Below, piece after piece: positions 6,197-45,669 of a DNA stretch of 64,000 nucleotides. Below the pieces are notes generated by a model. That model made no database searches, was not told the origin of the DNA, and worked only from the letters and a program-made list of their open reading frames with translations. The DNA comes from Fimicolochytrium jonesii. Lineage: Eukaryota. Position 1 is the stretch's first letter. Each line of letters starts with the position of its first letter. The DNA is taken from contig NW_026515671.1 in NCBI RefSeq assembly GCF_025526975.1, positions 930,001 to 994,000 of the forward strand, written 5' to 3'. The position numbers were made by a program, and so were the translations under genes.

Positions 6197-6798
6197 AAAA
6201 AAGCCTTTGTGCAGATATGCGGTAAAGATGCTGCGTCCACTCCTTACGATTTGTCAAATGCTTCTCAACGTGAAGTTGCAGGACTCCGTATCACTGAGCA
6301 TTTGATCCCGAGTTCCCAGTACAGAAGACTTACATCATATCACGACCGAGATTTGATTGAAGCTGTCAGACTGCTGCCTAATCCCGATTTTCAGACAATC
6401 ATAGAAGCTCTGACAGCCATGGATATATTCTAGAAGGGTTTATAGTATCTCACTCTAAAATATATTCCTCCCAATCTTTGCCCTTTATCTGCGTTATCCC
6501 CAGTCGATCCACGCTTTCCTTCGCTCTTCTTTGTATCTCTATCAGCGCTTCATCAGGATCCTTTGACAAGGAGCTATCTTTCTCAAAAGGGACTTTCCTA
6601 GCATCTAAGGATAGCATTTCTAAGCGCTGAAGTAGTAACCTTCCCATTGTTTCTATACAGGAGTCAGGCATACTTAAAACAAGGCTTTTTAAAAACATTC
6701 CTTTCTTACCCTTAAATGTTTTTTCTGACAACGCTAACCGCAAAAATTTGCTTGGAACCTCAGTCAAAACCTCGCGCAAACTCCTATCAAGCGAAGTA

Positions 6799-7073
6799 TG
6801 TAAGGTCAGAGGAAACGTAGACGATATTGGGCCCTTCCGAGAGGGCTGAGAGCAGTGTATTGTAGTGAAGAAAAAAGTAGGAAGCTCTTTGCAGCGGCCG
6901 CTTGACTGACAGCTTTATATATGGGCTGCCAGTGGGGCTTGCGTGGCTTCAGTGAGGCTTGGCGCCTTATGTCATGTATCACCGAGAGCTCGGGTGGCCA
7001 GCCCGGGTCTCGGATCAAGGAGAAGTAAAGAGATATAATATGAAATACAAGTGAAGATGAGATATCACCGACA
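6799..7073 (-). mobile_element. LTR family B, solo copy 1 (truncates the family C 3' LTR)
   Basis: TGT...ACA; near-identical to 17515-17791 and to the reverse complement of 25656-25930 and 36088-36362; no TSD. Confidence 0.9.
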
Positions 7074-7447
7074 CCCGGGGCGCCGCCCGAAGGCTTTTCT
7101 TCCCTTTGGGAGTCACCCCAGAGCGTAGGACTCCAATATAATTTATGCTACACGTGATCTCATGCCCTACACGCTTCCCCGCCCTATGGTGACACCTGCA
7201 GCACCTCATTACAACCCCCTTAGAGCCAAGTGTCACTCCGACACCGACCGCACCTGTCAGTCGCTCCCCGCTGTTACTTGATGTTTAGCTGACACAGGTG
7301 TCGGCCATGAGGAGTGCGCATGGCTCTACTGGAGCGGCTGGCGTCACTGGTGGTCACCACGATGGCAATCAGATCCACGCCGGTATGAGGTAGAGATGGT
7401 TCGGCCGCAGCTGGTCGTGGGGCGCTATGGTCCTTGTCCATGCGGCA

Positions 7448-8710: not shown

Positions 8711-11700
8711 GTCCGTAATGGTAATGATCATTTCGGACAGTAGAAACTCTGTTTTGATGTATGTACAAGGTTCCAGATACGTTTACGACGACGAGAGACT
8801 GCCGCTCCTCTTCGCCTTGGTCTCCCAAGTCTCCTGGCGTTTGACGGCTTGCTTTCGGACATATCGCTTGTGGGCCGAGGTGTTACAGACGTGTCGGAGT
8901 GGCTCCCAGTGTTCTGGGACACGTCGAAGCCGGCCCATCTGACCAGGAACATCTCGGTGTTGCGTACCCACTTGGAATCGAGGATGTCTTCAACTCGGTG
9001 TTCGAGTTTGCCGTTGACTTCCTGGGGGGGTGGCGCGTCCACTTTTTGGTATGGGCCGTTCTCCGGAGGGTTGTACCCGCGTAGGATGTTGACATGGAAC
9101 ACCGGGTGTAGTCCACTGAACTCGTGGGAGAGCTCCAGCTTGTAGGTGTCCGGGTGGGGCCCTTTTCCGCTGACGGTGAAGGGCCCGATCCACAGCGCGG
9201 GCAGCTTCTTGTTTCGGGCCGAGATACTCTTGATCTGAATGCCTTCGCGGTTCAGCAGGACCTGGTCGCCTACTACAAACGCATCCGTATTCTTGTTTTT
9301 GTCGTAGTATCTTGCCTGCCTGTCCTGGGCCTCTCGGAGTCTGTGCTGAACAATGCGGCTCACCTCGGTCAGTTGCTGCATGCGCTCCTCAATGCACTTT
9401 CGATCGGCCTGTTTCAGTTGCTCTGTTGGGTCGCTGGTACCCCATTGGTCTGGTACCTTTGGGATGTACCCGATGTCGATCTCGTACGGTGACATGCCCG
9501 TGGAGGTCTGGGACGTCCTGTTGTAGGTGTACTCAAGGAGGGAAGCATCTCGCGCCAGTTCGAGCCGGTGTAGTTCAGGTAGGGGACCATCATCTTCTTG
9601 ATTGTCTTGATGACATTCTCCGTCTTGCCGTCGGTCTGTTGGTGTCGTTCCGACGAGAGTTCCTGCTCTACGCCGGCGCACTTCAGGAGGTTCTTCCAAA
9701 AGGCGCCGGTCCATTGGTGTCCCAATCGCTGATGATCGTGTGGGGCATGCCCGTGATGCGGAAGGCCTGGTCAAAGAACAGCTGGGCGAGTTCCTTTGCC
9801 GTTGCCTTGGCATGGGTCTCGAGGAGGATTACGCGGCTGGATAAGTAGTCCACCAGGATGAGGACGGCTCCCTTGTCCATGACGGACTCGTCTCCCGCTT
9901 CGCCCCCCTTAGATTTTGTCATGGGGAAGTAGATGTCCAAGCCGACGCAACGCCAGCGCTCGTCGGGGACCGGAATGCTGCGTAGGAGCCCGAAGTTGGA
10001 AGCCTGCTTGTTGCGTTGGCAGTCGGGACAAGTCCGGACGTACTGGTGGACCTCGCGCTTGAGGAGGGGCCAGTAGTAGAGCGCGAGGAGTTTGGCGCCG
10101 GTGCGCTGGACACCTGAGTGGCCGCCGTTGGCCAGGGAGTCATGATAGAACCTGAGGAGGGGGCCCCGAAGGCCCTCGGGGACGGAGCAGCGGCCATGCT
10201 ACAAAACAAAGCCGCGGTCGTCACGCGTGAGGCGGCGCGCAAAACCCGAGAGGGTAGAGGGGTCATCAGGGTTTGTCATGGTGGTCTGCAGGTGGGCGAG
10301 GGTGTCCTTGCAGAACATGTCATCGCCAAGTGCAGTGAGCCACTTGGTGTCGGTAGGGAGGCGGCCGGTGATGTCCGGTAGAGGTGTCCCGGTGACAATG
10401 GAGAACACTTCGACGTTCATCTGACAGCTGGCGCACTTCGGGGCGTACCGTGGTGTGCGGCTGAGTATGTCGGCGATGTGATTGAACTCGCCGGGGAGGT
10501 ATTCGATAGTGAAGTCGTAGTCCTGAAGGAACTCCACCCATCCGGCCTGGCGCCGGGAGAGATGAGGCTGATTCTGGAGGTATATGAGGGATTCATGGTC
10601 GACGAATGCACGGAATTGGCGACCGATGAGGTGATGGCGGTTAGCGCGGATCACTTTGTTCAACGCGAGGAGCTCCTGTTAGTGCACCGGGTATCGGGTG
10701 TCGGCCGGAGCCATTTTGCGTGAGTAATATGAGATGACGCGGAGGCGCGGAAGGTTATTGGGGCCCTTTTTCATGGTGGGCAGTGGGTTCAGCATGGGAA
10801 AGTCGCCGTCCGTGCCCTGACGATCCAGCCATGAGAAGACGTAGGGGAACTTATCGGGGTCGAAGAACGCCCGGCAAGGGGCATCGGCGACGAGCGCCTT
10901 GATGGTGTTGAAGGCTGCTTGTTCCTTGGCGCCCACTGCCACGGGCGGGTGCCGGATTGAAGGTTGGTCAGTGGGAGGGCTGTGTCAGTATAATGCGGAA
11001 TGTATTCCTTGACATAGTTGACTAGCCCCATGAAGGAGAGGAGCTCGAGGGCGCTGGTGGGTTCGGGTCGAGCGCGGACAGCCTTGACCTTGAACGGGGC
11101 GATGGAAAGGCCATCCTTACCCACCATGTGCCCGCAGAACTGACCTGGTCCACTGCCCACTGACATTTGGATGGTTTACCGTGAAGGCCGTGAGCCGAGA
11201 GGGTCTTGAGCACATCAGTGACATGCCCGATGTGGGTCCATGTCGGTGCTGAAAATAAGGATGTCATCGAGGTAAGAGATGAGGTATGAATCGTACTTGT
11301 CACCCAGGAGTTTGTTCATGAGGCGTTGGAACGTCGCGGGGGCGTTCGTCAGCCCGAAGGGCAGTACGTTGTACTGGAAGTGGCCGAAGCGCGTCTGGAA
11401 GGCAGTCTTCTCATGGTCTTCCTCCCGCATGAGGATGCAGTGGTAGGCATCGCGGATGTCGATAGCGGTGAAGACCTTCATGCCGACGAGGCGGTCCCGA
11501 AGGTCGTTGAGGTTTGGGAGGGGCGTGGCGTCCTTATGGGTCATCTTGTTGAGGGCCCCGGTAGTCGATGCAGCAGCGGAGGCCACCGTCCTTCTTTGGG
11601 GCAAACAGTATGGGTGCCCCCCAGGGGCTCTTAAAGTGGGAGATCCACCCGCGGGATGATAGGCGCTCGAGTTGCTGCCGTAGCTCGTCGAGTTCGTCGG

Positions 11701-14605
11701 GGGTCAAGTGGCGGAGTGGGAGCATGACAGGCTTGGAGCCGGGCTTCAAGTTGATGCTGAAGTTGTCGTCGTCGCGGTCCGGCGGGAGGCCGGTCTGTTC
11801 GGTGAAGAGGGTATCTGTAAACTGTTCCAACGGGCGAAGAGGGTGGTCGGGGGCGACCGATGCGAGTGGATCCCCCGGGTGGTATCGGAGGGGTGTCCGT
11901 TGCCTTTCGGTCCGCAATGATCGCACATTTCTTTGCCTCGACCGTGCGAACGAAGTTAGCCTCTGCTTCGGCGACGTCCGTGAGGGTGTCGTCTGTGGCC
12001 AGGTCCACCTCCGTGTCTGTGCGTGAGACCCATGCGGTATAGACCTCGGTGGCCTTATTCCTCTTGATTCCTCGCTTGAATTGTTTGGCCGTGAGGAAGC
12101 CCTCCTCATTTAAGGCCGCGCGCTTTGGGTAGAAACGGCGGGGGTGAGGGCCCGTATGAGGTTCGAGTAACCGGGCCGCGCAAGCGCTGGGTTGTTGCCA
12201 TCGGCGGGTGGTAGGTTTAGCTCGGAAAGTTAGTACGGTTGCGTTAGCCTCAATTGAAGCGCCGGGAACCCATTGTCGCGCCATAAGCGTATGAGGTCAA
12301 GGTCCAAGATGTAGGGTAGCCCTAGGATAACATCCGCGCGGATCGGGGCCACGACAAACGGGACCCGAGGGGTCTTATGAGGTATTCATTCCTCCGTGAA
12401 GACGGAGAGGTTGGCACAAATCATCCGCGTGGTGCCGTATGATCCGGCTTTGTCACCCCAGCGCACCTCAAGGGGCATGGGACAGTCGTACGTGTTAAGA
12501 TCATGGCGTTGGGCAAATGAGTCGCTAATGAGCATGGTATTGCAACCAGTGTCTATGAGGGTGCGGCAGAAGATGCCGCCGACACGTCCATGGACCTTGA
12601 ACGTGAGCTTGTCGATGATGGGGGTGGGGCGGTATTCCGGAATGGTGTCCTGCAGTCGGGGTCCGGTAGGTCCCTCGGGTTATCTGGACGCTGAGGCGCT
12701 GCAGGCGGTCAGGCCCTGGGCAGAAAATCCTGACTGTCGATGGAGTATGCGCGGCTCGGGGGCTTCCGCGGCCAAATGAAACTTGTCGTTGTCATCATTG
12801 AAGGCCTTGGCGGGCGCCGCCGAGATCTTGAGTCGTCCGGGTTCTTAGGGCACGCCCGGGCGTAGTGGTCCTTGCTGCCGCAAGTGTGACATTCGCCTCG
12901 CTGAGTTTTCCTCTCCTTCCCAAGGGGTACTCGGTTGGAGTTGAAGGTGGGGGGCGTATCGCGCTTGTCGCAAGCCTGGCCGGAGTGGCCGTTCCGGGTT
13001 GGACCCGTTTGCCGTCTCCGAAATGTGGGCAATCCCGTCGGCATAACCCCCGATGCGGAAGGCCCTCTGGGCGGCTCCCTGAAGGGTCTTGATGGGGATG
13101 TCTTCGTCCTCATTGCCCTGTTGTAGGATGAACTGGTAGCACTGCTCACGGATGCGACGTCCGACCTGGTGGAAGGTCAGCCCGTTCAGGAAGTACTCAC
13201 GTTCCTGTCGCGGAGTGAGATGAGATGTTCCTTTTTGGGGAGGATAACGATCTGTGTGGTCAGTACGTTGAAGGCCGGAACGTAGTCGGACATGCTGTCT
13301 TTGAACTTCAGGGCGGCCAGTTTCGCCTCGACCGAATTACGGAGGTTGGCGGTGGGGTAGAACCTGCGCCTGAGTGCCTTCAGGAACCGTTCCTGGGTGG
13401 CGGAAGGCTCTCCGGAGCGAGCCTCGAGCTTCCACCACTCAGCGGCGTCTCCCAACAAGTGGGCTACGAAGTGTTTCACATCCCCGTCCTCTGTTCTGAA
13501 TTCGGTAACTTCCAGATAGCGTAGGTGGGCGTCGACGAACTCGTCCAGTTTGGCGACCATGTCTTTACCATTAGCCTTACCGTCAAACTTGGTCAGCATC
13601 TTAGCCAAGGTGGTTCGGAACTCCTTCTCGGTGGCCGCCTTGCGCTTACGCTCTTCGCTAGCCGCCAAATGGTCCTCGCGGCTAACCCGTACTCCAGCGA
13701 AGGGGCTGTCATCTGGGCAGTCCCTCTCCAGGCGCTCGAATTGCTGCTGGAGTTGGGCGTTGGTGTTGGCCAGCTGGGCTAGGATTTGGAGGATTGTTGC
13801 CTGTCCGTTCTCTTGTCGGGCTGGGGTACGGCTCGTGCGCCGCATGGGGGAGCGGCTTCGGGTCCTCGCCGGGGAGCGGCTGCGGTAGCGGCTTACTCAG
13901 CGGCTCCTTCGACGGGGGGGGAGATGCTCCTGCGACTCGTCGTCCGCGCCTGTATCGCTCTGGCGTCCGATTCTGGCGTCGAGGGTCCGGGCTTCGACGT
14001 CGACAAGGTGAGCGTGAGCTGGAGTGCCTCCTTCCAGGTGGCGACCACGGGGGTGACCCCCTGCGCCTGTGCAAGGGGCGGTTACGCTCTGCGGGGCCGT
14101 TGCCTTGGCGTTGGTCGCTGTCGAGCCGTTGCGCCCTTCGATGCGGGTGTTCAAATGGATCAAGCTTTAAGCGGTCATTGTTAACTATCGCAGAGCTGAC
14201 GGCGGTATTAGCACCCGCCTGAGAGTTGCTCATCGTAGGTTGCCGGAGAGATCTTTAAGGATGGTGCTACCATGTAATAATGCTAGGTCCGTTGCCAGAG
14301 GCTAGCTCTGTCTCCGCTCGATGTATTGAAAGAATTCTAGAGTTTCTACCTCCGGGACGCCGCCCGAAGGCTTTTCTTCCCTTCGGGAGTCACCCCAGAG
14401 CGTAGGACTCCAATATAATCTATGCTACCCGTGATCTCATGCCCTACGCGCTTCCCGCTCTAAGGTGACACTGCAGCACCTCATTACACACTCGCTGTCG
14501 CTTGAGAGCCTTCTTTAGGCTGTCCCCTTTGTGTGTTTGAGGCAAAGGTGTCCCTAAGCGGACGTCGTGTGTGATGTGTGATGTGACACTTCGCTCTAAG
14601 GGGGG

Positions 14606-14825
14606 TGTAATGAGATGCTGCAGGTGTCACCTTAGTGCGGGGAAGCGCGTAGGGCATGAGATCACGGGTAGCATAGATTATATTGGAGTCCTACGCTCTG
14701 GGGTGACTCCTGAAGGGAAAGAAAAGCCTTTGGGCGGCGCCCCAGGAGGTAGAAACTCTAGAATTCTTTCAATACATCGAGCGGAGACAGAGCTAGCCTC
14801 TGGCAACGGACCTAGCATTATTACA
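14606..14825 (+). mobile_element. Family C 3' LTR of a second, oppositely oriented copy
   Basis: TGTAAT...ATTACA, reverse complement of 14273-14488, preceded by PPT CTAAGGGGGG. Confidence 0.9.
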
Positions 14826-15257
14826 TCTGAGCTGCTTCAGATGGACACAGATAGCATGTATATGGCGCTTGCCGGTGACACCATTGATTCCCTGGTGAGG
14901 CCAGAACTCAAGGAGCAGTTTCTACAGGAACGCGGGTTTATGGTTGGTTGCCGATGGGGATGAATACAACGAGAAGACCCGGGGCTATTCAAGATAGAGT
15001 TCACCGGGACAGCGCTGATTGCCCTGGCACCCAAGATGTACTTTGTGGTTGGAGATGAAGAGCAGTTCCTACGGAGCAAGAAGCGCAGCAAGGTGAGCTG
15101 CAAGGGGACCAATAAGAAACAGAATGTCGATCTTCTGACCTACGACAATTTCAAAAAAGTATTGGATGGACAAATCAAGAAAGAGTTCATACAAATGGTC
15201 AACAAAGGTTTTAGATGTTACAGGACGCAGTTGTACCAATATGAAACAACGGCGTGA
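14826..15257 (+). pseudogene. C-terminal fragment of a protein-primed-type family B DNA polymerase (Maverick/Polinton-like)
   Basis: LLQMDTDSMYMAL (motif C), PGLFKIEF, ALIALAPKMY, KVSCKG, LTYDNFKKVL across frameshifts; intronless; cut by an LTR. Confidence 0.8.
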
Positions 15258-15459
15258 AGCCTCAGCAATAAACAAGATAAAAGGAGGAGATTACCAGATG
15301 GGCGCCGAACCTAACCGCTCTACTAGCTTGCACAAAACAAAACAAACCCTTCCCAAGTGGAAGATTTATAGGAGAATAAATATGTGTAGTGAAACGCACT
15401 GCTTGTTTTCCCTCGTTCTTTTTTTTTGACACTCAACGCACTCACTCACGCACTCAACG

Positions 15460-17514
15460 TACTGCTCTCGAGTGGTACAATACGACTTACGCCGCTGGAC
15501 CTCCTGCAAATTGGGCAGCTTTCGAAACGGCTCTCGTCGCTCACTTCTATCCTCGCAACTTGCATAATACTATTGAGCTCAAGCTCTCGGTCTCAAGCTC
15601 GGTGACTCTCTCAAAAAATGTATCAAGGAGTTTCAAGACACCAATAATGAGCTCGAAGCCGCTCATCGTCTCGATAACACTCAAGGCACCATTCCCCTTA
15701 TCGATCAGATTTGATACTTCAAGGCTGGTCTTCTCAAGAATACAGGAATCGGTCATTATCTCGCTGAAGCCGTTACGAACTTTGAAATCTCGGGCACTAC
15801 CAATATCAACACCCCTATCACTCTCGATCAAGCTATCACTGCAGCTCGTCGTGCTCATGTGGCTCATGGGTTCACTGACGGCAACCAAGCCAATACGCCT
15901 CGTCCGATTGCCTCGGCATCAAGTTCTCGTGACGGCCGTGGAGCCAGTTGAGGTCGAGGTAGTTGTGGCGTGGTCGTGGTGGACGATACGCCCCTTACAC
16001 CAATCTCGAATTACGGAATTTGAGCAAGACTTAGATGATATGACCTTTGGGCTCAATGCCCTCGGTACGTCATACTATCCCCCTGGAGTGAGTCGTCTCA
16101 CTACAGGTCAAGTTCCTACCAACGTCACAGCCCTTTCGTTGACGTGGACACTGGCAAGCTACTCACGGTCCTCGTCAACGTCCAACGACTCCCTGTCCCC
16201 TTTGTAACAAAATGGGACATTGGAGAGTTGAATGCTGGTCAAATCCCGAAAAATCGACAGCAAGGCTCGCAAACCCAGAAGCGACGCGGTGGTCTTCGAC
16301 AGCGCGGTCGTGGCGCTCAAACTCCGCAGCCCAGTTGCCAACCTAATCAACAACAAGGTTCAGCCAATCAGGTTGATGCTGGGTCATGCATTACGGAAAT
16401 TCTCGATGACGCCGTCAACTCAGCGAATACTACGAATACTACTAAAATCAAGCTTCGAGTTCTTCCAAGGTCGATAGAGCCCCTCGGTAGCTCTGCTTGG
16501 CCTACCACATACGATCCTACCAATAAACCTGCCTTCGAACCACTGTCTGCTGGACTCTGGGTCTCTCATTGTCGCATCGGAAACAAGTTTGCTCGTGTTC
16601 TTTTCGATAGCGGCGCAACTGGGTTATTCCTTGATAAGACATTCGTCGAAAAGCACAAATTTCCCAAGAAACGTATCAAACCGAAGCAGATATGGCTGGC
16701 CGGCAAAGAATCATACATGATTGTCGACACAGTCGTTTCGGAAAAGTTAGATCTATGGGATCTCAAATCTCAGTCGCTTTTCTTAGTTGGACAACTACCC
16801 TGGCTAGTCAGTAATCTGGCTTACGACGCTATTATTGGAAAGCCTTTCTGGCGTTTCTTTAATTACGCTGAACAATTCTCGATGAGTACCTTACCTACCC
16901 TTCGCTGGACCAATTACGGCCCTATACCAAACGCACCGCAGTCTGTCACCATCAAGTGCGAAAGAACTTCAAGAAACTGGGAAGACGTCGAATACATCCC
17001 GAAACACAAAACCCTTACTTCGATGTACAACGAGATCCGGTCTATGACAAAAGACCTGTTCGACCTGTTCGGATCAGTAAACCTGTGGATACTCGTCCTC
17101 TACCAGCCGCACCTCATTATATATCTCGATTTGCTCAAGCCAATGCCCTTCGCAATCCTCAAGTCATAGAAATGACTTTTAAGCAATTCAATAAGGCTTG
17201 GCGACGGAACAAGTTTGAAAAAGACCCAGTCTGTCCCCTCGCTCTTAACGAAATACTGGACGCTCCACAAGAGCTTAAAAAAATCCAGGACATCTCAAGG
17301 ATATCCTAAATAAACACGTCAATACGCTCTTCAAGGAACCGGAAGGTCTACCCCCTGATCGCGGAGAAGATGATTTCAAGATCGAACTCACTGAAGGTGC
17401 TGAACCCGTTTGGCAACCTCTTCGGCACATGAACAAAGAAGAACTCGCTGAACTCAAGAAACAAATCACCTCGATGCTCGAAAAAGGATGGATACAACAC
17501 TCCTCAAGTCCTGG
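15460..17514 (+). mobile_element. Internal fragment of family B gypsy element (gag, protease, start of RT), frameshifted
   Basis: Closely matches 26339-27637; VLFDSGAT protease; LPPDRGEDDFKIEL...GWIQHSSSP RT start, cut by an LTR. Confidence 0.88.
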
Positions 17515-17791
17515 TGTATCGTCAGAGGAAATGTAGACAACATTGGGCCCTTCTGAGAGGGCTGAGAGCAGTGTATTGTAGTGAAGAAAAAAGTAAGAAG
17601 CTCATCGCAGCGGCCGCTCGACTGACAGCTTTATATATGGGCTGCCAGTGGGGCTTGCGTGGCTTCAGTGAGGCTTGGCGCCTTATGTCATGTATCACCG
17701 AGAGCTCGGGTGGCCAGCCTGGGTCTTGGATCAAGTAGAAGTAAAGAGATATAATATATGAAATACAAGTGAAGATGAGATATCCCCGACA
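17515..17791 (-). mobile_element. LTR family B, solo copy 2
   Basis: TGT...ACA, near-identical to other B LTRs; flanks CCTGG/TCACG, no TSD. Confidence 0.9.
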
Positions 17792-25655: not shown

Positions 25656-27637
25656 TGTTGGGGATATCTCATCTTCACTTGTATTTCATATTATACCTCT
25701 TTACTTCTACTTCATCCGAGACCCGGGCTGGCCACCCGAGCTCTCGGTGATACATTACATAAGGCGCCAAGCCTCATTGAAGCCACGCAAGCCCCACTGG
25801 CAGCCCATATATAAAGCGGTCAGTCGAGCGGCCGCTGCGAAGAGCTTCTTACTTTTTTCTTCACTACAATACACTGCTCTCAGCCCTCTCGGAAGGGCCC
25901 AATATCGTCTATGTTTCCTCTGACGTTACATGGTAGCACCACCTACCGCTAGCATCACCAAGAGATTCCTCGTCAACGTCGCCCCTCTACCGGACGTCGC
26001 CCTTACACTCGTTCACAAGCAAGAATGGACCACCAAACTCAAGCTATCGTTGCGGCTGTCGCAGCTGCTTTCGCTTCTTGGGGGCGTGCTGTTACGCAAG
26101 ACACCCAACAAGCCGAGCGTTTCAGACTTCTTATGGACGCTCGCAAGAACAAGCTTGTCGAATACGATCGCGCCAAAGCTGCCAAAGAGATCGAAGAGTT
26201 TGTTACGTCTCACATCAACTCCCTCGAGTCTCTCACTGTCCCGGCTGTACAAGCTGGACCAGACGGTACTGGAACTGCCACTGCCATAGCCTTTAATATG
26301 GCAGAGTACGCTCCTACGCTCACTACCTACCTCAAGGGTACTGCTCTTGAGTGGTACAATACAACTTACGCCGCCGGCGCTCCCGTGAGTTGGACAGCTT
26401 TTCAAACGGCTCTTGTCGCTCACTTTTATCCACGCAACTTGCGTAATACTATTGAGCTCAAGCTTTCTGGCCTCAAGCTTGGTGACTCTCTCGAAAAATA
26501 TATCAAGGAGTTTCAAGACACCAATAATGAGCTCGAAGCCGCTCATTGTCTCGATAACACTCAAGGCACCACTCCCCTTATCGATCAGATTCGATACTTC
26601 AAGGCCGGTCTGCTCAAGAATACAGTAATCAGTCATTATCTCGCTGAAGCCGTTACGACCTTCGAAGTCACGAGCACTACCAACATCAACACCCCTATCA
26701 CGCTCGATCAAGCTATCACTGCAGCGCGTCGTGCTCATGTGGCTCATGGGTTCACTGACGGCTACCAAGCCAATACACCTCGTCCGATGTCCTTGGCAAC
26801 AAGTTCTCGTGACGGCCGTGGAGCCAGTTGCGGTCGAGGTAGTCGTGGCGGTGGTCGTGGTGGACGATACGCCCCTTACACCAATCCTCGAATTACGGAA
26901 TTTGAGCAAGACTTAGATGATATGACCTTTGGGCTCAATGCCCTTGGTACGTCATACTATCCCCCTGGAGTGAGTCGTATCACTACAGGTCAAGTTCCCT
27001 ACCAACGTCAACAGCCCTTTCGCCGACGTGGACACTGGCAAGCTACTCACGGTCCTCGTCAACGTCCAACGACTCCCTGTCCCCTTTGTAACAAAATGGG
27101 ACATTGGAGAGTTGAATGCTGGTCAAATCCCGAAAAATTGACAGCAAGGCTCGCAAACCCAGAAGCGACGCGGTGGTCTTCGACAGTGCGGTTGTGGCGC
27201 TCAAACTCCGCAGCCCAGTTGCCAACCTAATCAACAACAAGGTTCAGCCAATCAGGTTGATGCTGGGTCATGCATTACGGAAATTCTTGATGACGCCGTC
27301 AACTCAGCGAATACTACGAATACTACTAAAAATCAAGCTTCGAGTTTTTTCCAAGGTCGATAGAGCCCCTCGTTAGCTCTGCTCGGCCTACCACATACGA
27401 TCCTACCAATAAACCTGCCTTCGAACCACTGTCTGCTGGACTCAGGGTCTCTCATTGTCGCATCGGAAACAAGTTTACTCGTGTTCTTTTTGATAGCGGC
27501 GCTACTGGGTTATTCCTTGACAAGACATTCGTCGAAAAGCACAAATTTCCCAAGAAACGTATCGAACCGAAGCAGATATGGCTGGCCAACAAAGAATCAT
27601 ACATGATTCTCGACACAGTTGTTTCGGAAAAGTTAGA
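25656..27637 (+). mobile_element. 5' half of family B gypsy element: LTR 25656-25930, PBS, gag 26025-27230, protease
   Basis: TGTTG...TTACA then PBS TGGTAGCACCA; CPLCNKMGHWRVEC knuckle; VLFDSGAT. Confidence 0.9.
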
Positions 27638-28953
27638 TTTCCCCTTTGCTCGTTGAAAGAATTGTCAGATCATCAACGTAGACGGCAATGATGATAAAAC
27701 CTCGGCCAATGCGCTTTATGTAAAGAGCATAGTCTGGTTTGGAAACGTTGAAGCCTTTTTCTCGGAGGTAAGCGTCCAACACCTTATTCCATAACTGAGG
27801 TGACTGTTTCAGCCCGTATAGGGAACGTTTGAGTTTCACTGTTGTCCCGTCTGGTAGGCGAAGGTATTTTACGGTGTCAAGGTTCCCATTCAGGAATGCG
27901 GCCTTTACATCCATCTGATGGATCTCCAAGTCGTGTGACGCTGCGATGGCTAACAACATCCGCAACGTATTAAACTTCACGACGGGCGCAAACGTTTGGT
28001 GGTAATCTATTCCCTCTCTTTGCGTAAATCCTCTGGCTACTAAACGTGCCTTGAACTGCTTGATAGAATTGTCAGGATTGCGCTTTACTTTAAAGACCCA
28101 TTTGGAATCTACTGTGTGTCCAGTGTTTTTCTGATCAGACGATTCCCAAGTTCCGTTCTTTGCGTGAGAGGCAAGTTCTTCTTCCATAGCGGCTTGCCAT
28201 TCGCGTGAGTATGGGGATTTCATAGCGGCTTGCAGTGTGGTGGGTTTATCTGTGTCCACCGTAGCTACCAGGAGTTCCGCTCCTGTGTACTGACCACCGT
28301 CGTCTTCGGCCCCCAAAAACTCAGATAACGCTACTGCGTCTTTTACAAATTCGTAGGGTTCCATGTGGGGTCGTCAAAACCTTCCCACTTGACGAGGTAC
28401 TCCTTCTCCCCCAAATCTCCATCTCCACTCGATAAGAGTATTTTCTCAATGGCGTATTCTGCAGGGTCTTCTGATCCAGGAGCGACGGATTCGCTACGAC
28501 TGTTTTCTTTGTTGAAGGTTACATCCTGAGACTCAAATATCTCGAGCATATCTTCATCAATGAGACGATAAGTGTCATGTTTAGTGGCATGATACCCAAG
28601 TAAACGCAACGGACCTAGTGCCCAGGCGAAAGTTTACTTCTCCTCTTCTGTTTAGGGATGTGGAGGAACGCCTCACTCAACGGTGTCCGCAAAGTCAATA
28701 TATCCGCTGATTTCCCATACCATTTGTGGTATGGAGTTGTGCCAGTAGCACTGGCCGGTGTCCTTTGTCTGAGGTAATTCACCAAAACGGCAAATTCATT
28801 CCAAAGGTTTTCTGGCACGTTACTCATCCACATTATGGTGCGAACTTGATCCATAACTGTTCGATTGAACCGTTCCGCAATACCATTTTGTTGGGAGGAG
28901 TACGGCTGTGTCCGGACTAGCGAAATCCCGGCTTCTTTGAGTTCATCCAGCAT
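27638..28953 (-). mobile_element. Ty1/copia pol fragment: integrase - chromodomain - RT
   Basis: PYSSQQNGIAERFNRT integrase; WVFKVK..KARLVARGFTQ, HQMDVKAAFLNG, SLYGLKQSP, VYVDD RT; INT precedes RT (copia order). Confidence 0.92.
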
Positions 28954-31900
28954 TGTTATGGACAACGCGCCCATACCATAAGCTTACCTACTGACAGCCG
29001 CCAATGTCAACCGCCAAATGTCAAACGCCAATGTCAATGTCAATGTCAGTGTCAATGTCAGTGTCAATGCCAATGTCAATGCCACTCCCCCTCTCTCCTC
29101 TCATTTCGCCAATCCTCTTGCAATATCGCCACTCCTCCTCTCTCCTCTCATTTCGCCAATCCCCCCCTTGGCTTCTCCACACCCCCCACTGCTTCCCCAT
29201 AGCCAGCAGCTGTAGCAATGCTCTCTACGCTCGCCACGCACGCTCTAGGAGCATAGCTGGCGCCCCCCAGTCCCCTGTTGTTGTTGTTGTTCTCTGATCT
29301 GCTGGGTTGCCTATCTATAAATAGCCGGCCTCTCTTCGTCCATTCCCTTCCTCCCCAGCAGATCAACACCAGTTCTTCTCATCTCCTGTTCTAGTCCTTG
29401 TTTATTGTTTCGCCAATACAATCTCTTGTCGCCTGTCACACTCGCCCTGTCTTCTCTACTTCGCTTCCGCCCCCATTGTCGAGATCATAACAGTTTGATC
29501 TGCTCCAACACTGCGAAGTTCAGAACCTGTCCAGCCCTGCATCCGACAAACCTTTTTCGCCATGTCCCAACCCGAATCCGTACCTTTCACCGCCAAGCAA
29601 TGGAACGATATGTGCCAAGCCATCGCCGCCTTGCAAAGCCAAAACGCCAACTTGCAGGCCAACCTAGCGCAAGCCCAAGCCGACGCACAAGCTGCCCAGA
29701 GCATCGCCGCCCAGGTTCAAGCCGATACGTACACCCGTCCCCAAGTCGCCAACCCTGCTCTGGAGCCAAGAATCAGCTCGCCCGAGAAGTTTGATGGTAC
29801 CCGCAGCAAATTCCGTGGGTGGTTGAACAACATCCAGTTGATGTTTGCTCTCCAGCCCGACCGCTACCCCAGCGACATCATCAAGATCCAAACTATTGGC
29901 ACCTACCTCACCGGCACTGCGCAAGCCTGGATGGCGCCCCTAGTCGAACGCCAAGATCACAGCCTTCAGGACTTCAATAGTTTTATCAGTCAGATGCAAT
30001 CGGTCTTCGGAGACAGCGACAGGGTCCGCACCTCTGAAAACAAGCTCCAGAACCTTCGCCAAACCCGTGCAGCAACCGAGTACGTCGCTGAGTTCCGCCA
30101 GCTACAATGCGATGTCTCCTGGAACGACCAGGCCCTGATTGCTACCTTCCGCCGTGGCCTCAAAGAGGACGTCAAGGACCTGATGCTCACAATGCCCCCT
30201 GCTGTCCACCATTGATATGGTGATGGAGCAGGCTATCCAGTGCGATAACCGGCTGTTTGAGCGCCGCCTGGAGCGAAACAGAAGCCGCCAGACCTTCCTG
30301 GTTCCCCACACCTCAGTTTACTACTACCACCACTGTCGACCACAGCGAGCCTATGCAGATTGACGCCGCTCGTCCCCGCGGCCCTCTGAGCCCTCAGGAA
30401 CGCCAACGCCGCATTTCCAACAACCTCTGCCTTTACTGCGGTGGCGCGGGGCACATTGCAAAAGTCTGCCCCGTCAAGAACAAGACCACCACCCGTGCCG
30501 CCAATGTCGACATGAAAGAACCCTCCACCGAACAGGGTTTTCCCAAAGTCCAGCCGCAGTAAAGCCCCAGCGACTGGACAACACACACCGCCCCGGGCCT
30601 CCTAACCTCGCAGCTCCTGCAACGGGAGAGGCCACCCCCCTGGTTCCCGACTCCGTTATAGCTGACACAACCCTCCTAGCCGCTGCCCATGTCGAAAACT
30701 CCGAAATTAACCCCCGCGCCATGCTTGCGCTGGGTCCCATCGAACCCTTCAACTACCCCGTTACCATCATGGTATCATCCAGCCGCGCCCCGATACCTAC
30801 CTCAGCCATGATCGACAACGGTGCCCTGTCCTGCTTCATCGACAGAGACTTTGCCCGCAAACACCGCATCGCCCTAGTCCCGCATCAGCGTCCACTGACG
30901 ATCGAACTCGTTGACTGTCAACCCAGCTCTGCTGGGCCAATCACCCATCACACCCAACCAGTAGGCATGTGGGTCGACGACCACTTCGAAGAACTCGTCT
31001 TCCATGTCACCAAATCACCCCATGCTCCAATCCTCCTTGGTCTTCCCTGGCTCCGCCTCCACGACATTAACCTTGACTTCAAGAACCTTTCGGTCGGTTT
31101 CCGTTGCGACTGTCTGTACCATGAATTCGCGAATTGGGACAACTCTCCAGCACCCCTGAGCCCAGCACCCGCCAGAACCCCCGAGCCCTTGATCCGCATC
31201 CCCCAGGATGAAGTCCCCGTCGACGAAACATGGTCGATTCCAGTACCCAAGGTATCTCGCTCCAGCACCCCAGAACCGGCTCCCACGCCGCTCCGAGTCT
31301 CGTTCATCTCCGCCCCAGCCTTCCAGGTCGCAGCAAGGCATGACCAGGTCTTTGTTGCCTACGCCAACCCTGCGAAACCCGATCTCCCAGCCTCGCCTAG
31401 CCCCAGTAACCCCCCGACACCCGAGAAAGACATCAAAGACTTCCTGCCCCCCGAGTATCAGACTTCGCCGACGTTTCGAAAAGAGAAATGCTGACACTCT
31501 CCCCGAGCACCGGCCCTACGACTGTCCAATCGATCTGGAAGAAGGCAAGCAGCCACCTTTCGGCCCGATCTACAGCCTCAGCGAACCAGAAATGAAGGCA
31601 CTCTGCGAATACCTCGAAGAAAACCTCGCCAAAGGATTCATCCAACCCTCAAAGTCCCCTGCCGGTGCGCCAGTCTTATTCGTGAAAAAAAGGACGGTTC
31701 TCTCCCCCTCTGCGTGGATTATCGAGGCCTGAACAGCATCACGGTGAAGAATCGCTACCCCCTGCCCCTGATCAACGGTATCATGGATCGTCTGCGCGGT
31801 GCCCGCCGTCTCACCAAGATCGACCTCCGCGGTGCTTATAACCTCTTATGCATGCGCCCGGGCGATGAATGGAAGACCGCCTTCCGCTGCCGCTATGGCC

Positions 31901-34900
31901 TATTCGAATACAACGTCATGCCCTTTGGACTCAGCAATGCTCCTGGCGTTTTCCAGTACCTGATGAACAACATCTTCCGCGACATTCTCGATGTGTTTCT
32001 TGTTGTCTACCTTGATGATATCCTGATATTCTCCAAGAACCCCGAAGATCTCCCCAAGCATGTCCGCGAAGTCTTGTCCCGCCTCCGCCAGCATGGGTTG
32101 TACGCCAAACCAGAGAAGTGCGAATTCAACCGCAAATCCGTCGAGTTCCTAGGCTTCATCATCTGCGAGAAAGGCATCCAGATGGACCCCAAGAAGATCG
32201 CTGCCATTACGGATTGGGAGCCTCCCAAGAATGTCAACGGCGTCCAGCGTTTCCTCGGCTTTGCCAACTTTTATCGCCGATTCATCCAAGGTTACTCCAA
32301 GATTGCTACCTCGCTCACAGCCCTGACCCGGAAAGACATCCCGTACGCCTGGACACCCGCCGCAAACACCGCCTTTGAGAACCTGAAGAAAGCATTCACC
32401 ACCGCCCCCATCCTTGCTCACCCTGACCCAGAGAAGCCCTTCGTCGTCGAAACGGACGCCTCCGACTTCGCTCTTGGCGCAGTTCTCCTCCAACCTGACC
32501 AGGACAATCAGCTCCACCCCGTGGCCTTCCACTCTCGCAAATTCACGGCCAAAGAGATCAACTACGAGATCTACAACAAGGAACTTCTGGCCATCCAAGA
32601 CTCCTTTGCCCAGTGGCGACACCATCTCATTGGCGCCCGTCACAAGATCACCGTTTACTCCGACCATAAAAACCTTCAGTACTTCATGACCACCCGCACC
32701 CTGAACCGCCGCCAAGCCCGCTGGTCGATATTCTTCTCGGATCTTTGACTTTGTCATTACCTATCGCCCCGGTTCCCAGCAGCACCAAGCCGATGCCCTC
32801 TCCCGACGCTCCGAACATGAGCTAAAAAATGGGGAAGAAGCGTTCCGCTCCCAGGCAACCACAATTTTGACTCCCGAATGCCTTCGACTCGCCGCGGCCT
32901 GCCTCACACCCATGGATACCATGCTTCTTGACATGATTAAGGCTGCCCAGGCCTCTGATCCCCTCGCTAAGGCCATCCGCGAAGAGCTCAAGATACCCCT
33001 CGCCCAACGGACTGACGAAACCCAAGATCGTATCAAACGGTTCTCAGATGAAGAAGGAATCCTGCTGCACGATAACCTTGTCTATGTCCCCACCAACAAG
33101 CTCCGAGCTGAAGTCTGCCATGACATGCACGATACACCCCTAGCCGGCCACTTTGGGATGTCCAAGACGCTCGAACTCGCCTCCCGCAACTACTGGTGGC
33201 CCAGCCAGTGGCGCTTCGTCAAGGCTTACGTCAAGTCCTGCGATACCTGTAGCCAAGCGAAATCCAGTCGACACAAACCATATGGCCTACTCCAGCCCAA
33301 CAGTATCCCTACCCGCCCTTGGGGATCTTGGTCCCTGGACTTTATCACCGGTCTGCCTCCCGTGGACGGGTACAACTCCATCCTGAACGTCAACTCTTGC
33401 CTCACCAAGATGGCCCACTTCGTTGCCTGCAGCGAGTCAGAATCTGCCGAATCCACCGCCGACCTAGTCTTCCACAACATCATCCGTCTCCACGGCCTCC
33501 CCAACGACGTCATCTCTGACCGAGGACCCCAGTTTAAGTCCCGGTTCTGGCGTCGACTTCTCAAACTCCTTGGGGCAAAAGCCAACCTCTCCTCGGCCTT
33601 CCACCCCCAGAGCGATGGCCAGACGGAACGCACCAACCAGATCCTGGAGCAGTATCTCCGATGCTTTTGCAACCACCAACAGGACAACTGGAAACAGCTT
33701 CTGTCGTCCGCCGAGTTCGCCTACAACAACACCCACCAGTCCGCCTCCCAGACCACCCCCTTCTACGCCAACAAGGGTCTCCACCCCCGCTTCAGTTTCG
33801 CGGCCTCCGCTACCTCCGAATCCGTCAACCCCGCCGCTGAAGCCCGCGCTAAACAAATCAGGGAAGTCCATGAACTGCTCGCCTTCGAGCTCAAGGAAGC
33901 CCAAGATCAAATGAGGCGCTACGGCGACGCTAGACGAATTCCTGGACCGGACTTCAAGCCTGGCGACCACGTCTGGCTCCTCCGCAAAAACCTCTAGACA
34001 ACCCGGCCCTCTCAGAAACTCGACCATCGCAAGATTGGGCCATTCCCCATCGTTGAAAAAATCAATCCCGTCGCCTACCAGCTCAAGCTCCCGCCTACGT
34101 ACAAAATCCACGATGTCTTCCATGTCTCGCTCCTCGAACCCCGCTTCACCATCCCCAAACGACACGAACCCGAACCCGCGCCCCCAGAGACCGTTGAGGG
34201 TCAAGAAGAGTGGGTTGTCGAAGCCATCCTTGACTCTCGCATCCATTGTCGTCGCCTTCAGTACTTGGTCAAATGGCAGGGCTGGCCTGACTCCGAGAAC
34301 ACCTGGGAGCCCGTGGAACACCTCACCCATACCGATGCACTCCTCCAGGACTTCCACAGCGCGTACCCCAACAAGCCTTCCTCTGTCCCTGTAGCACCTC
34401 CTCTGCGGCCACACCAACCTCGACGCCGCCGCCGCCGCCGCTAAAGAGAGGGGTGATGTTATGGACGACGGGCCCATACCATAAGCTTACCTACTGACAG
34501 CCGCCAATGTCAACCGCCAAATGCCAAACGCCCATGTCAATGTCAATGTCAGTGTCAATGTCAGTGTCAATGTCAATGTCAATGCCACTCCCCCTCTCTC
34601 CTCTCATTTCGCCAATCCTCTTGCAATATCGCCACTCCTCCTCTCTCCTCTCATTTCGCCAATCCCCCCTTGGCTTCTCCACACCCCCCACTGCTTCCCC
34701 ATAGCCAGCAGCTGTAGCAATGCTCTCTACGCTCGCCACGCACGCTCTAGGAGCATAGCTGGCGCCCCCCAGTCCACTCTTGTTGTTGTTGTTCTCTGAT
34801 CTGCTGGGTTGCCTATGTATAAATAGCCGGCCCCTCTTCGTCCATTCCCTTCCTCCCCAGCAGATCAACACCAGTTCTTCTCATCTCCTGTTCTAGTCCT

Positions 34901-34994
34901 TGTTTCTTGTTTCGCCAATACAATCTCTTGTCGCCTATCACACTCGCCCTGTCTTCTCTACTTCGCTCCCGCCCCCGTCGTCGAGATCATAACA
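28954..34994 (+). mobile_element. Full-length Tf1/sushi-like gypsy chromovirus, family A (LTRs 28954-29492 and 34457-34994), with several frameshifts and stops
   Basis: ~539-bp LTRs differing at roughly 15 sites; [81 protein letters not shown]. Confidence 0.96.
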
Positions 34995-36362
34995 ATTTGG
35001 AAGCAATATCTCAACTACAACGTAAGCAATTGGAAGAAACTATTGCCTTTAATCGAATTCGCATACAACACTGCTCGGAGGGAGGAATATGAAGGTTTAT
35101 CGCCATTCGAAGTAGATCACGGACGCTCTCCAATCCTCCCGGGTTGGAATCCAACACTCAAAGGACAAGAACTCAAACTTCGAGCTGTAGATCGAAACGA
35201 AATCGAACTCTTCAAGAAAGGGCAGGAAGATATTGCCCGGATCGTATGCGAACACCTTCAGAGGTCGCAAGATCAATTTGCACGTCAACACAACAAAGGT
35301 CGAACGCCAATCGCATACAGAATTGGCGACCTCGTCAATTTAAATCGACAAGGAATCAACCTAGAAGTAGACGCTCGAAGCGGACTTTGATACTCAGCTA
35401 CGTGGATCGAACCATTCAAAATCATCGCACAAGGAGCACATCCTGATACCTACAAACTCGATTTATCACCATCGAAGATCAGCGGCATCTGGCCCGTCTT
35501 TCACGTCGATATTTTACGACCACATCGCGAAGAGCAATATCCGCAACATACAGTTCCACAACCTCCTCCACCAGTCGAAGAACGCGGACAACCCAAATGG
35601 GTTGTAGAAGACATCATCGACGAGGGATGCGCCGTACGAAATCTTCTAGTCAAATGGCTCGGTTATCCTGACCCTACTTGGGAATGCGAATCAGCACTTC
35701 GCTCCACGCCTGCCTACAAACGATGGCGAAAAGCTCACCCACAATCTTTGTGGATACGGAAACGTACAGCATAGAGCATCTCATATCACATCACACGCGC
35801 GACGCCGCAAGAACCGCTCACTATCAATCACACCGCTGACAATAGCGACGTAAACTACATCACATCACGCGCGGCGACGCAAGAACCGACCTTACACACA
35901 CACATCACACACGATGTCGGCTTAGGGACGCCTCTGCCTCGAACACACACATCACACAGTGCGTCAACACTATAAAATGAACAAGTGCCTCAACACTTTA
36001 AAATGAACATGAGCTCTCCCTTTCTTCACATATCCCTTGTAGTTCACCTCTTATTTATTCGGCGCCCTCCTCAGGATCCGAGGGAGGTGTAGGGGATATC
36101 TCATCTTCACTTGTATTTCATATTATATCTCTTTACTTCTACTTGACCCGAGACCCGGGCTGGCCACCCGAGCTCTCGGTGATACATGACATAAGGCGCC
36201 AAGCCTCACTGAAGCCACGCAAGGCCCACTGGCACCCCATATATAGTGCTGTCAGTCGAGCGGCCGCTGCGAAAAGCTTCTCACTTTTTTCTTCACTACA
36301 ATACACTGCTCTCAGCCCTGTCGGAAGGGCCCAATATCGTCTACCTTTCCTCTGTTGTTACA
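34995..36362 (+). mobile_element. 3' part of family B gypsy element: integrase end, chromodomain, 3' UTR, PPT, LTR 36088-36362
   Basis: LPLIEFAYNT, WPVFHVDIL, WVVEDIID..LVKWLGYPDPTWE; PPT GAGGGAGG directly before the LTR. Confidence 0.88.
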
Positions 36363-36367
36363 GGGGT

Positions 36368-43310: not shown

Positions 43311-45026
43311 TTATCTGCCCCTCTGAGACATGGACAGACAGTTCCCACCATCAGATGATGACTCCCTTATCTGCCATCCATTGAGTTGTCTTCTTCTGCA
43401 GGCCTTCTCCGATAACGGCTCTGATACTGCATCAGCGGCTGTTCTTGGGCCCATTCGAACAGTGTTTGCAGCTGCGGAATGGGTAAGGCCAACGCATGTC
43501 CGTCCACATCTGGGAAATGATCAAATCAGAACGCCAGACTGATCCAATCGGTAGTGAAGTCGGAGCAATATACCTTCATCAATTGGCGCATCCGTACATA
43601 GCCGATGCACGATTCTGATAGAAGAATGTGAGAGCGCAGTGGCCGACGTGATTCGCCGAAACTCACTTATTCGGACATCTGAATACATTGCAAAGGTGCA
43701 TAAGCCTTTGCCTCAAAGGTGATTCCTTCCCTACTGTTCTCCGCGAGAATGTGTCTCACCGTTGATGTAAACAATGTCGCCTACTTCCAGCATGTCCAAC
43801 CATCTTGTGTTCGCTCTCCAGAGTGTAATAGGGAAGAACGGAACGGTATGATCCGCCACCAAAACCGAGGTAACGGGCACAGATGCGCCATCTATCGACA
43901 TGTGTTTCACCACATGAAGCTGCGTCACGACAGCTAATATGGCGCACCGTGTGTTTATGCGACAGCTTGAAAGATTTGTTGCGGGAAGAAGCGCGGAACG
44001 GACGGGTTGGAGGGTGGACTGCAATGGCAGAACAAAGTCTCGTCTGGTTGGAGGGTTCTGATGCTGTCGTCGCGCAGAATGCCCGCTCGTACTGCTCGCC
44101 ATTGAAGCCAGTTGCGACTCAGTGGGAGCATGTGGTAAAGGGAAGGGATCGGACTCTCTGTTGGAAGCAGCGGCATCGTTATCCTTGATTCCATTTGACG
44201 CTCGATGTGTAGCCCGGTTGAAGCCTCCATTTATCAACGCTGCTTGCGAGTCAAAGGTAGGCAAAGTGGTGCTGATGGAGTCCATCCTTTCCTGTGAAGT
44301 TGTAGGAAGGATAATCGTCACTGAAGACGCGATTGAGGCAAGATGGACAGAGGTGGGACCCGTGCTTTCGGAATGTGTATCCACACCATCAACTAGTGCT
44401 GGGTTTGAGATCCCCAGAGATTTGATGTCCCGTTCATTCGGCAAACTAGCGTGCAGAGAAGCTGATCCTTGTTGTATCTCAAGGTGATGATGCATGGGGT
44501 GTGAGGCAAGGATGCTCGCCCCAAAATCATTTTCGTTGACGAGACTATCTCGATTGTTTGCCCCGAACAGCCCATCAAACAGAGAGTTCCAGTATAAGCT
44601 CAAAGTGTGCTGAAGCAATTCCTCCGTAGGCTCTGTACCAACATGGAGCTCAAGAGCTGTCGGGTTGACGTGTTCAGCGGACATTGTATCGTTGACTTCC
44701 ACGCAAAGAGGAAAGTGGTTGTTGAACCCAGCAAGCGACTCGATTTGCTCTCTGTTCTGAAGTTCTGAGCTCCAATGATGCTTCTGAAGAAGATTTGCTG
44801 GGAAGTACGGGCTTTCCACCAAACTGTAGCGAACGGCTCGGACAACGGGGGACCACTCCTGAGATGCAGGCTGCAAAGCGCCGCTGTCTTCAAACGTGTA
44901 ATCCTCATATGACACAAGCGGACCATTACCGAGTAGTTCGCCTGTATGTTCTGATGGTATTTCTTGTTCAGGGAGCGAACCGATGCTAATGCTTGGCGGG
45001 AGGAACAGGCGGAATCTCCGGGTCAT
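43311..45026 (-). CDS. Protein with a long disordered N-terminus and a C-terminal OB-fold (SHLD2/RPA-like)
   Basis: AILAVVTQL...VLVADHTVPFFPITLW...LEVGDIVYI OB-fold pattern; intron begins near 43757; 3' end approximate. Confidence 0.55.
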
Positions 45027-45669
45027 CGTGAGGTTCTTCCAGTACGCAACCCCGTTTGATGACAACCCACATTGCGACAGCACTGACTGCCACACCGCAA
45101 GCCAAGGCGACAAACGGCGCTGAGCAGCGAGCAGATCCCTTTCCTAAAAGGGAGTTTGTACGGGAATGTCCATGCGCCTTGCACCTCTTGGGTTTGCAGA
45201 TGTCACGGAAAAAGCTGCGGGGGACTGTTAAGAGTTTCGGTTAGATGAGGTGTGACGTGCTGGCTTACGCATCTCCGAAAAAGTCGCCTTTCACGCGTGT
45301 GTTTCGCGTTTCCGCTGGTCCTTCCCACTTTGGTCTTCTCACAACCTTCGCAATAGATCGGGGGCGTGCTAGGTCAGCTGCTGCAGCGGCGGCATCCTCC
45401 TTGATCGGATATAGTCCGAGTGCTCTCCTCAGATCTTTCTACAATTATAATACAAGTCCACCATTATACAAACATGCGTTTACTGTCCGGCATTGTCTTT
45501 GGAAAACTGGACACGACACAACACACGTTACGTCCTGCGAGCGACACACATACAAATACACAACGTATGTCAGAAGAGCCACGAGAGACGATAAAGGAAT
45601 CTCCTTCGATGCTGATTAGGTTCTCAGGATATGTAGTACTTCCTTCACTGTCCTTCCTGCTTTGACGAT

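Follow-up and report, generated by a model that had tools for sequence, protein, structure and literature searches.

A classical chromodomain between integrase and reverse transcriptase in a decayed copia fragment and its intact relatives

The window, the whole 64,000-nucleotide stretch of DNA analysed here, contains a copia-type piece of 1.3 kb on the minus strand (28952-27641) that represents only an internal part of an element. Six-frame translation and Pfam give its minus-strand domain order as integrase core, SH3-like module, chromodomain and RVT_2 reverse transcriptase (RT). The C-terminal part of the copia integrase catalytic core lies at 28624..28952 (Pfam rve_3, E 3.7e-8; 60.5% identity to residues 317-435 of P0001, an intact relative described below). 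It is followed by the second half of SH3_retrovirus, the SH3-like module of the integrase C-terminus, at 28505..28621, with Pfam PF25597 matching on either side of a frame break near 28622. A classical chromodomain occupies 28314..28459 (Pfam Chromo E 3.3e-5 for its N-terminal half; 69% identity to the P0001 chromodomain over 54 columns). A weakly conserved linker with a hydrophobic stretch (28251..28313), likely containing the integrase/RT cleavage site, then leads into the copia RT at 27641..28250 (RVT_2, E 2.4e-47), which ends shortly past the YVDD motif. The sequence-only reading had placed a chromodomain between the integrase and the RT of a copia element; both Pfam and PDB matches bear this out, with 28459-28314 as its exact position.

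Three minus-strand reading frames cover the piece. The frame 28983-28618 encodes the integrase core, 28633-28346 the SH3-like module and about the first two thirds of the chromodomain, and the ORF 28373-27636 begins with the remaining third and continues into the RT. Frame changes in tblastn against P0001 place two one-base breaks near 28622 and near 28360; the latter confirms the missing base suspected earlier inside the chromodomain, and P0001 aligns across both sides of it. The fragment is cut inside the integrase core at 28953 and just past the RT YVDD motif at ~27641, and both ends are junctions with gypsy sequence. RNase H, LTRs and gag are absent from the 1.3-kb fragment (27641-28952). 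Because of the two frame breaks and the missing LTRs, this copy is dead and unable to transpose. Unbroken host ORFs of 933 and 1537 aa occur in the same window, which argues for decay rather than sequencing error as the source of the one-base breaks.

The assignment to Ty1/copia (Pseudoviridae) rests on the integrase preceding the RT in pol and on an RT of the RVT_2 type that groups with copia RTs in trees; full-length relatives show the order PR-IN-RT-RH. The chromovirus arrangement, RT-RH-IN with an RVT_1-type RT, is not what the fragment has. What the fragment does share with chromoviruses is a C-terminal integrase chromodomain, which follows the SH3 module immediately and precedes the putative cleavage site. 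A copia element with an integrase C-terminal chromodomain is also the defining arrangement of CoDi-A and CoDi-I, and it is found here.

The copia piece sits in a nest of gypsy elements, and the parts of gypsy A and B around it are on the plus strand. On its left, it adjoins the 5' LTR, gag and protease of gypsy A (25656..27640), meeting the protease at ~27640, exactly where identity to a second A copy (16460-16752) ends. On its right, its integrase core is cut at 28954 by the 5' LTR of gypsy B, a full-length chromovirus-type element with its own, different chromodomain (28954..34994) and LTRs that differ at 14 of 538 aligned positions. Beyond gypsy B come the integrase C-terminus, a YPDPTWE-ending chromodomain and the 3' LTR of gypsy A (34996..36365). 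This YPDPTWE chromodomain (~35590-35750), attributed earlier to a neighbouring family B, belongs to gypsy A, whose LTRs lie at 25656-25933 and 36088-36365, and not to the full-length gypsy B. The flanks of gypsy B are mismatched, with no target-site duplication. Its LTRs are 97% identical and it carries several frame breaks, consistent with a recombinant of two insertions. In the simplest history of the locus, elements would have inserted into one another and then lost parts by deletion, in one case probably through recombination between two B copies.

Other features of the window are recorded here in their own right. The gypsy A gag-protease region exists in two copies, 15380-16752 (+) and 25953-27640 (+), 87-98% identical; both lose the RT just past the protease and diverge there. 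Family A LTRs, in mixed orientation, also occur at 6798-7075, 17515-17791 and 36088-36365. A third decayed chromovirus-type gypsy element at 8731-13896 (-) retains Gag, RT, RNase H, integrase zinc finger, SH3 and a frame-broken chromodomain. Nested inverted repeats at 14272-14826, with 85-nt arms that are 96-99% complementary and related pieces at 7075-7236, are possibly a small non-autonomous DNA element. An ORF piece at 43734-45143 (-) matches SHLD2_OB1, the OB fold of shieldin subunit 2 (E 6.7e-8, above cut-off), in a genome of fungus-like character. The 1537-aa open frame at 53548-58161 (+) has no Pfam match and contains internal repeats of 3 x 72 nt (57232-57447) and 3 x 54 nt (56664-56828).

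The N-terminal 33 residues of the copia chromodomain alone reach 24.2 bits against Pfam Chromo, just below the cut-off of 25.1, because only half of the profile is covered. The best PDB match of this half-domain is fission-yeast Swi6 (E 9.3e-5), so the peptide does score as a chromodomain, as had been anticipated. An aromatic cage of the Y24/W45/Y48 type defines the classical (group I) chromodomain (PMC3350952). The window copy has this cage as Tyr (28456-28454), Trp (28387-28385) and Phe (28378-28376). Of 33 copia rows, 31 retain all three aromatics, and the two incomplete rows, one an N-terminally cut gene call and the other a deletion, lack the first aromatic only. Among six relatives, identity to P0001 falls from 38-65% within the chromodomain to 6-39% in the linkers on either side, and this difference points to purifying selection on the domain. 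A profile of nine copia domains finds CDY/CDYL as the best PDB matches, then HP1, CBX (Polycomb types) and Chp1, with E values down to 1.5e-15.

The predicted fold agrees with this assignment. In an AlphaFold2 model of P0001 (35-row alignment), strands at 493-501, 507-513 and 520-523 and a helix at 531-537 form a block with pLDDT 80-89. This is the three-stranded sheet and C-terminal helix of a chromodomain (residues 493-537), as predicted for the relative and not for the broken copy in the window. The domain sits between low-confidence linkers, and the linker after it is modelled as disordered. Among the matches listed for a Foldseek search with the complete P0001 model there were integrases only, and the search gave no information on the chromodomain.

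A search with the broken pieces returned one protein among 66 candidates, P0001 (TPX52540.1), from the chytrid Powellomyces hirtus (Spizellomycetales). Its presence answers a test set beforehand, namely whether intact relatives carry the domain: in a single frame and in the same order, P0001 has a Gag remnant, protease, integrase, SH3, Chromo (E 6.9e-9) and RVT_2. It is 60-64% identical to all three window pieces, and 61-64% identical across both sides of the break near 28360. The best 150 matches of P0001 among 1.84 billion representatives include seven with a clear chromodomain at this place, P0001 among them, and one with a degenerate domain. A chromodomain stands at the same place in 2 of 80 metagenome loci. 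In a profile search, with 120 of 171 matches listed, at least 30 proteins combine Chromo with SH3_retrovirus and/or RVT_2; adding P0004 and P0144 brings the total to at least 32 database proteins in which Chromo accompanies a copia integrase C-terminus and/or RVT_2. Nineteen of these 32 were looked up: two come from P. hirtus, and the record of one names a bacterial MAG. Judging by these relatives and by host genes of fungal type, among them a WLM protein for which an Atlas search pointed to a fungal-like eukaryote, the window probably derives from a chytrid-like fungus. A region search with residues 430-600 of P0001 found two proteins among 972 candidates, far below the alignment search, and word-based searches therefore under-count. 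Among the matches listed by the Atlas feature search, no copia cluster had Chromo, and all feature scores were below 0.9.

Two proteins deserve separate mention. P0177 (GAC1660287.1), a copia Pol with chromodomain that is recorded under a bacterial MAG, likely comes from a mis-binned eukaryotic contig. In the Powellomyces gene model P0046 (TPX53569.1), the protease region is joined straight to the chromodomain and RT without an integrase, which may reflect a gene-call splicing artefact or an internally deleted copy. Within the wider lineage, the domain is dispensable in some branches, because P0016 has a degenerate chromodomain and P0029, a copia element with Ty3-type Gag, has none.

The nest itself raises the question of whether the domain was acquired locally, taken from a gypsy neighbour or joined on by nesting or misassembly. 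The rearranged setting, the mismatched flanks and the three gypsy chromodomains in the window would suit such a local chimera. Against it, P0001 comes from a different assembly and aligns collinearly from integrase through chromodomain to RT, all in a single frame. With X placed at the frame break, the window chromodomain is 69% identical to that of P0001 and 55-61% identical to those of three more members of its group (G1, below), compared with 24% for gypsy A and 35% for gypsy B. In addition, the domain tree groups it with four copia relatives (G1) at 100/97. The chance of a local chimera is thus vanishingly small, and the chromodomain is inherited within the copia lineage. The same identities and grouping rule out the neighbouring gypsy elements as donors. 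They overturn the earlier suggestion, drawn from the shared DPTWE ending, of acquisition from the YPDPTWE gypsy element; DPTW(E) recurs in unrelated chromodomains (gypsy P0002 and others). As to the deeper source, the chromodomain tree (122 rows, 55 columns) is mostly without resolution and its bootstrap did not settle, and mean identity of the G1 domains is 39% to gypsy domains and likewise 39% to HP1 domains. A distant gypsy element or a host gene could each have been the donor.

The polymerase and integrase phylogenies agree with inheritance. In an RT tree of 168 rows, which left out 9 of 34 chromodomain copia rows with fewer than 125 aligned RT residues as well as cluster duplicates, the window falls in an 8-row clade (SH-aLRT 98) in which all eight rows carry the chromodomain; we call this clade G1. 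The other chromodomain copia elements form four further groups. Concatenated trees combined integrase with RT/RNase H, excluding linkers and chromodomain, and included 69 and 40 of 151 eligible proteins plus the window row, with a background drawn at random. In the 40-row tree, a G1 core of five rows has support of 100/100. G1, G2, G4 and the degenerate P0016 form a 13-row clade there at 94/97, with 12 clear domains and a bootstrap that is not fully settled; the 12 clear rows are also united at SH-aLRT 99 in the 69-row quick tree. This clade has Trp just upstream of the SH3 module, compared with Phe-Gly in ordinary copia.

Outside this clade, G3 (P0014, P0161) pairs with the chromodomain-less P0050 at 97/98 in the 40-row tree. 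G5 (P0170, P0218, P0250) is distant and long-branched, has copia-type Gag and carries its chromodomain set in a long linker; it probably represents another independent capture. A single clade for all chromodomain copia with Ty3-type Gag (G1-G4) is not supported by the more careful 40-row tree, the four groups standing together in 0% of its 200 bootstrap trees. An AU test on the 69-row quick tree, in which the free tree was suboptimal, did not reject G1-G4 monophyly (p 0.84). The trees thus put chromodomains on no fewer than two or three distinct branches among the copia sampled, and counts of changes do not distinguish gains from losses.

The relatives also have an unusual Gag, a feature known from them and not from the window fragment, which has no gag. 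Among 166 proteins typed with our own Gag profiles, all from a background set retrieved by P0001 only, 96 are copia-type, 11 are of another type and 59, mostly partial, are untypable. Nine of the 11 non-copia-type proteins have a chromodomain, one has a degenerate domain and one has none, a count that is partly circular since ten of the 11 built the profile. The copia polyproteins with Ty3/gypsy-like Gag are P0014, P0016, P0029, P0161, P0164, P0166, P0167, P0169, P0172, P0173, P0182 and P0001, most of them with a chromodomain. The copia-type Gag PF14223, usual but not universal in Ty1/copia, is not what these relatives carry; the lineage Gags match Pfam PF03732 and mostly also PF19259. PF03732 itself has been associated with Copia as well as Gypsy polyproteins (PMC4350172). 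A profile of 12 lineage polyproteins matches the Ty3 capsid in the PDB (6r22, E 7.7e-8), and none of its best 60 of 233 rows is a Copia capsid; a control profile of 16 ordinary copia elements matches the Drosophila Copia capsid (E 5.6e-33), with no Ty3 capsid among the best 60 of 162 rows. The gypsy B Gag of the window scores 36 bits with the lineage Gag profile, and none of the 96 copia-type Gags exceeds 16.5. The Gag of P0001 amounts to just 70 residues, and its match to Ty3_capsid (E 3.8e-5) is below the cut-off.

We tentatively consider, at rather less than even chances, that the lineage is a cross-superfamily mosaic, in which a copia PR-IN-RT-RH was combined with a Ty3-like Gag and an integrase chromodomain, both from a chromovirus. 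Such elements would replicate with copia enzymes while being packaged and targeted like gypsy chromoviruses, in early-diverging fungi and other microbial eukaryotes. If the Ty3-like Gag did come from a gypsy donor, this would be a rare exchange of modules between the two superfamilies.

What the domain might do can be framed from its position and cage. Protease would cleave Gag-Pol in the hydrophobic linker after the chromodomain, leaving the domain on the mature integrase; the cleavage position, ahead of the RT N-terminal motif, is one we presume from copia biology. The Tyr/Trp/Phe cage would then bind H3K9me2/3 (or H3K27me), as in HP1 and MAGGY, and the histone-bound chromodomain would tether the integration complex to silent chromatin, biasing insertions to heterochromatin. 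The MAGGY chromodomain binds H3K9me2/3 (PMC3350952), and in Tal1/EVD it is the C-terminus of a copia integrase that decides target preference (PMC11735389). The mark read by this lineage could differ, because the best PDB matches are CDY/CDYL, followed by HP1 and Polycomb types. The place of the fragment inside a nest of transposable elements is also consistent with neutral accumulation. Taken together, we favour as likely the reading that this decayed copia fragment belongs to a lineage whose inherited chromodomain is carried on the integrase and tethers it to methyl-lysine histone marks, by which new copies would be directed into silent chromatin.

The main rival to targeting is a role in integrase regulation, in which the inherited domain would control integrase activity or specificity, or bind nucleic acid or a non-histone partner. 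Chromodomain ligands are diverse, and the chromodomain of Tf1 modulates integrase activity rather than being a shown histone reader: its removal raises integrase activity and lowers substrate specificity (PMC3350952). Methyl-histone binding by the lineage domain is, moreover, a prediction. However, the retention of the complete cage in nearly all rows, across divergent groups, is expected for a selected methyl-lysine pocket, and we therefore judge a purely regulatory or non-histone role unlikely, though to be taken seriously. A different alternative concerns ancestry, namely that this lineage and the diatom CoDi-A elements form one group, of which it would be the fungal branch, and go back to a single ancestral capture of the chromodomain. 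The position of the domain equals that described for CoDi-A (PMC2774666), and the Atlas feature search puts oomycete and diatom copia clusters first, though at scores below 0.9 and without Chromo. On the other hand, CoDi belongs to Branch 1 with Ty1 and GalEa in the published description, and the lineage matches Ty1 integrase no more closely than ordinary copia does (profile E 2e-31 compared with 3e-39). In trees built without a CoDi sequence, it nests among ordinary copia with copia-type Gag. Common descent with CoDi-A thus seems improbable, and the fungal and environmental chromodomain copia lineage is probably separate, with an independent capture. The protease signature DTG(C/A), which defines GalEa (PMC5445492), is not that of the lineage: 11 of 12 rows in alignment A3 read DS at the catalytic motif, and only the chromodomain-less P0029 reads DTGA.

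The literature places this lineage in a sparsely described category. Llorens et al. 2009 (PMC2774666) reported a putative integrase chromodomain in the diatom CoDi-A copia elements and knew of no other copia with one. In the available text of Ustyantsev et al. 2017 (PMC5348765), chromodomains are named only for chromoviruses, Chronos and CoDi-I. The corresponding text of Neumann et al. 2019 (PMC6317226), a plant survey that includes 5410 copia elements, gives them for chromoviruses only, and that of Muszewska et al. 2011 (PMC3248453) mentions them for gypsy only. The word chromodomain has zero occurrences in the study of ascomycete copia by Donnart et al. 2017 (PMC5445492), and the sections available of PMC10817607, PMC3587641 and PMC6875170 describe no chromodomain copia. 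The titles and abstract openings searched, a scope that has subscription papers and Repbase Reports outside it, contain no report of a fungal chromodomain copia. The statement that such domains are rare in copia therefore holds as to rarity, with the qualification that CoDi-A is a precedent (PMC2774666).

Chromodomains serve as a hallmark of gypsy chromoviruses, and CoDi-A was the sole copia case named in the sources of 2009 and 2017 as available. Convergent capture of chromodomains by retrotransposons is an established theme. Gypsy lineages of Ectocarpus are reported to have captured reader domains repeatedly (PMC12477816), and arthropod copia an MBD (PMC6673714). With a full methyl-lysine cage in a second copia lineage, diverse and probably separate, fungal copia would join the retrotransposons that have convergently captured histone readers. 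The case also cautions that neither a chromodomain nor the type of Gag is by itself a safe basis for classification. The chromodomain-less sister elements P0029 and P0050, together with the degenerate P0016, offer natural controls for chromodomain retargeting of a copia integrase, and the lineage could serve to probe the poorly known heterochromatin of chytrids.

Among known systems, CoDi-A and CoDi-I likewise have the copia order and, ahead of the RT, an integrase that ends in a chromodomain (PMC2774666; PMC5348765). As described there, they are Branch 1 elements of diatom hosts, whereas the nearest named relatives of the window element are from the chytrid Powellomyces hirtus. The CoDi-A domain is called putative in its description, whereas that of the present lineage passes Pfam Chromo and has a full cage. 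Chromoviruses of the Ty3/gypsy superfamily (MAGGY, Tf1, Tcn1) have an integrase C-terminal group I chromodomain with the same type of Y24/W45/Y48 cage, and the relatives of the window element share with them a Gag matching the Ty3 capsid. Unlike chromoviruses, the window element has a copia Pol, with integrase before an RVT_2 RT and SH3_retrovirus instead of the Tf2-type SH3 module; its chromodomain is internal to the polyprotein, whereas the chromovirus domain is at the polyprotein end. The host proteins HP1/Swi6, CDY/CDYL and SUV39 share fold and cage with the copia chromodomain and provide its best PDB matches, but the copia proteins have neither a chromo-shadow nor a SET domain. The arthropod CopiaMBD (PMC6673714) and Arabidopsis Tal1/EVD (PMC11735389) are copia elements with a chromatin-reading MBD and a target-setting integrase C-terminus, respectively. 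They use another module and ligand, methyl-CpG or CENH3 chromatin, as shown by experiment, whereas the lineage of the window element is known from sequence.
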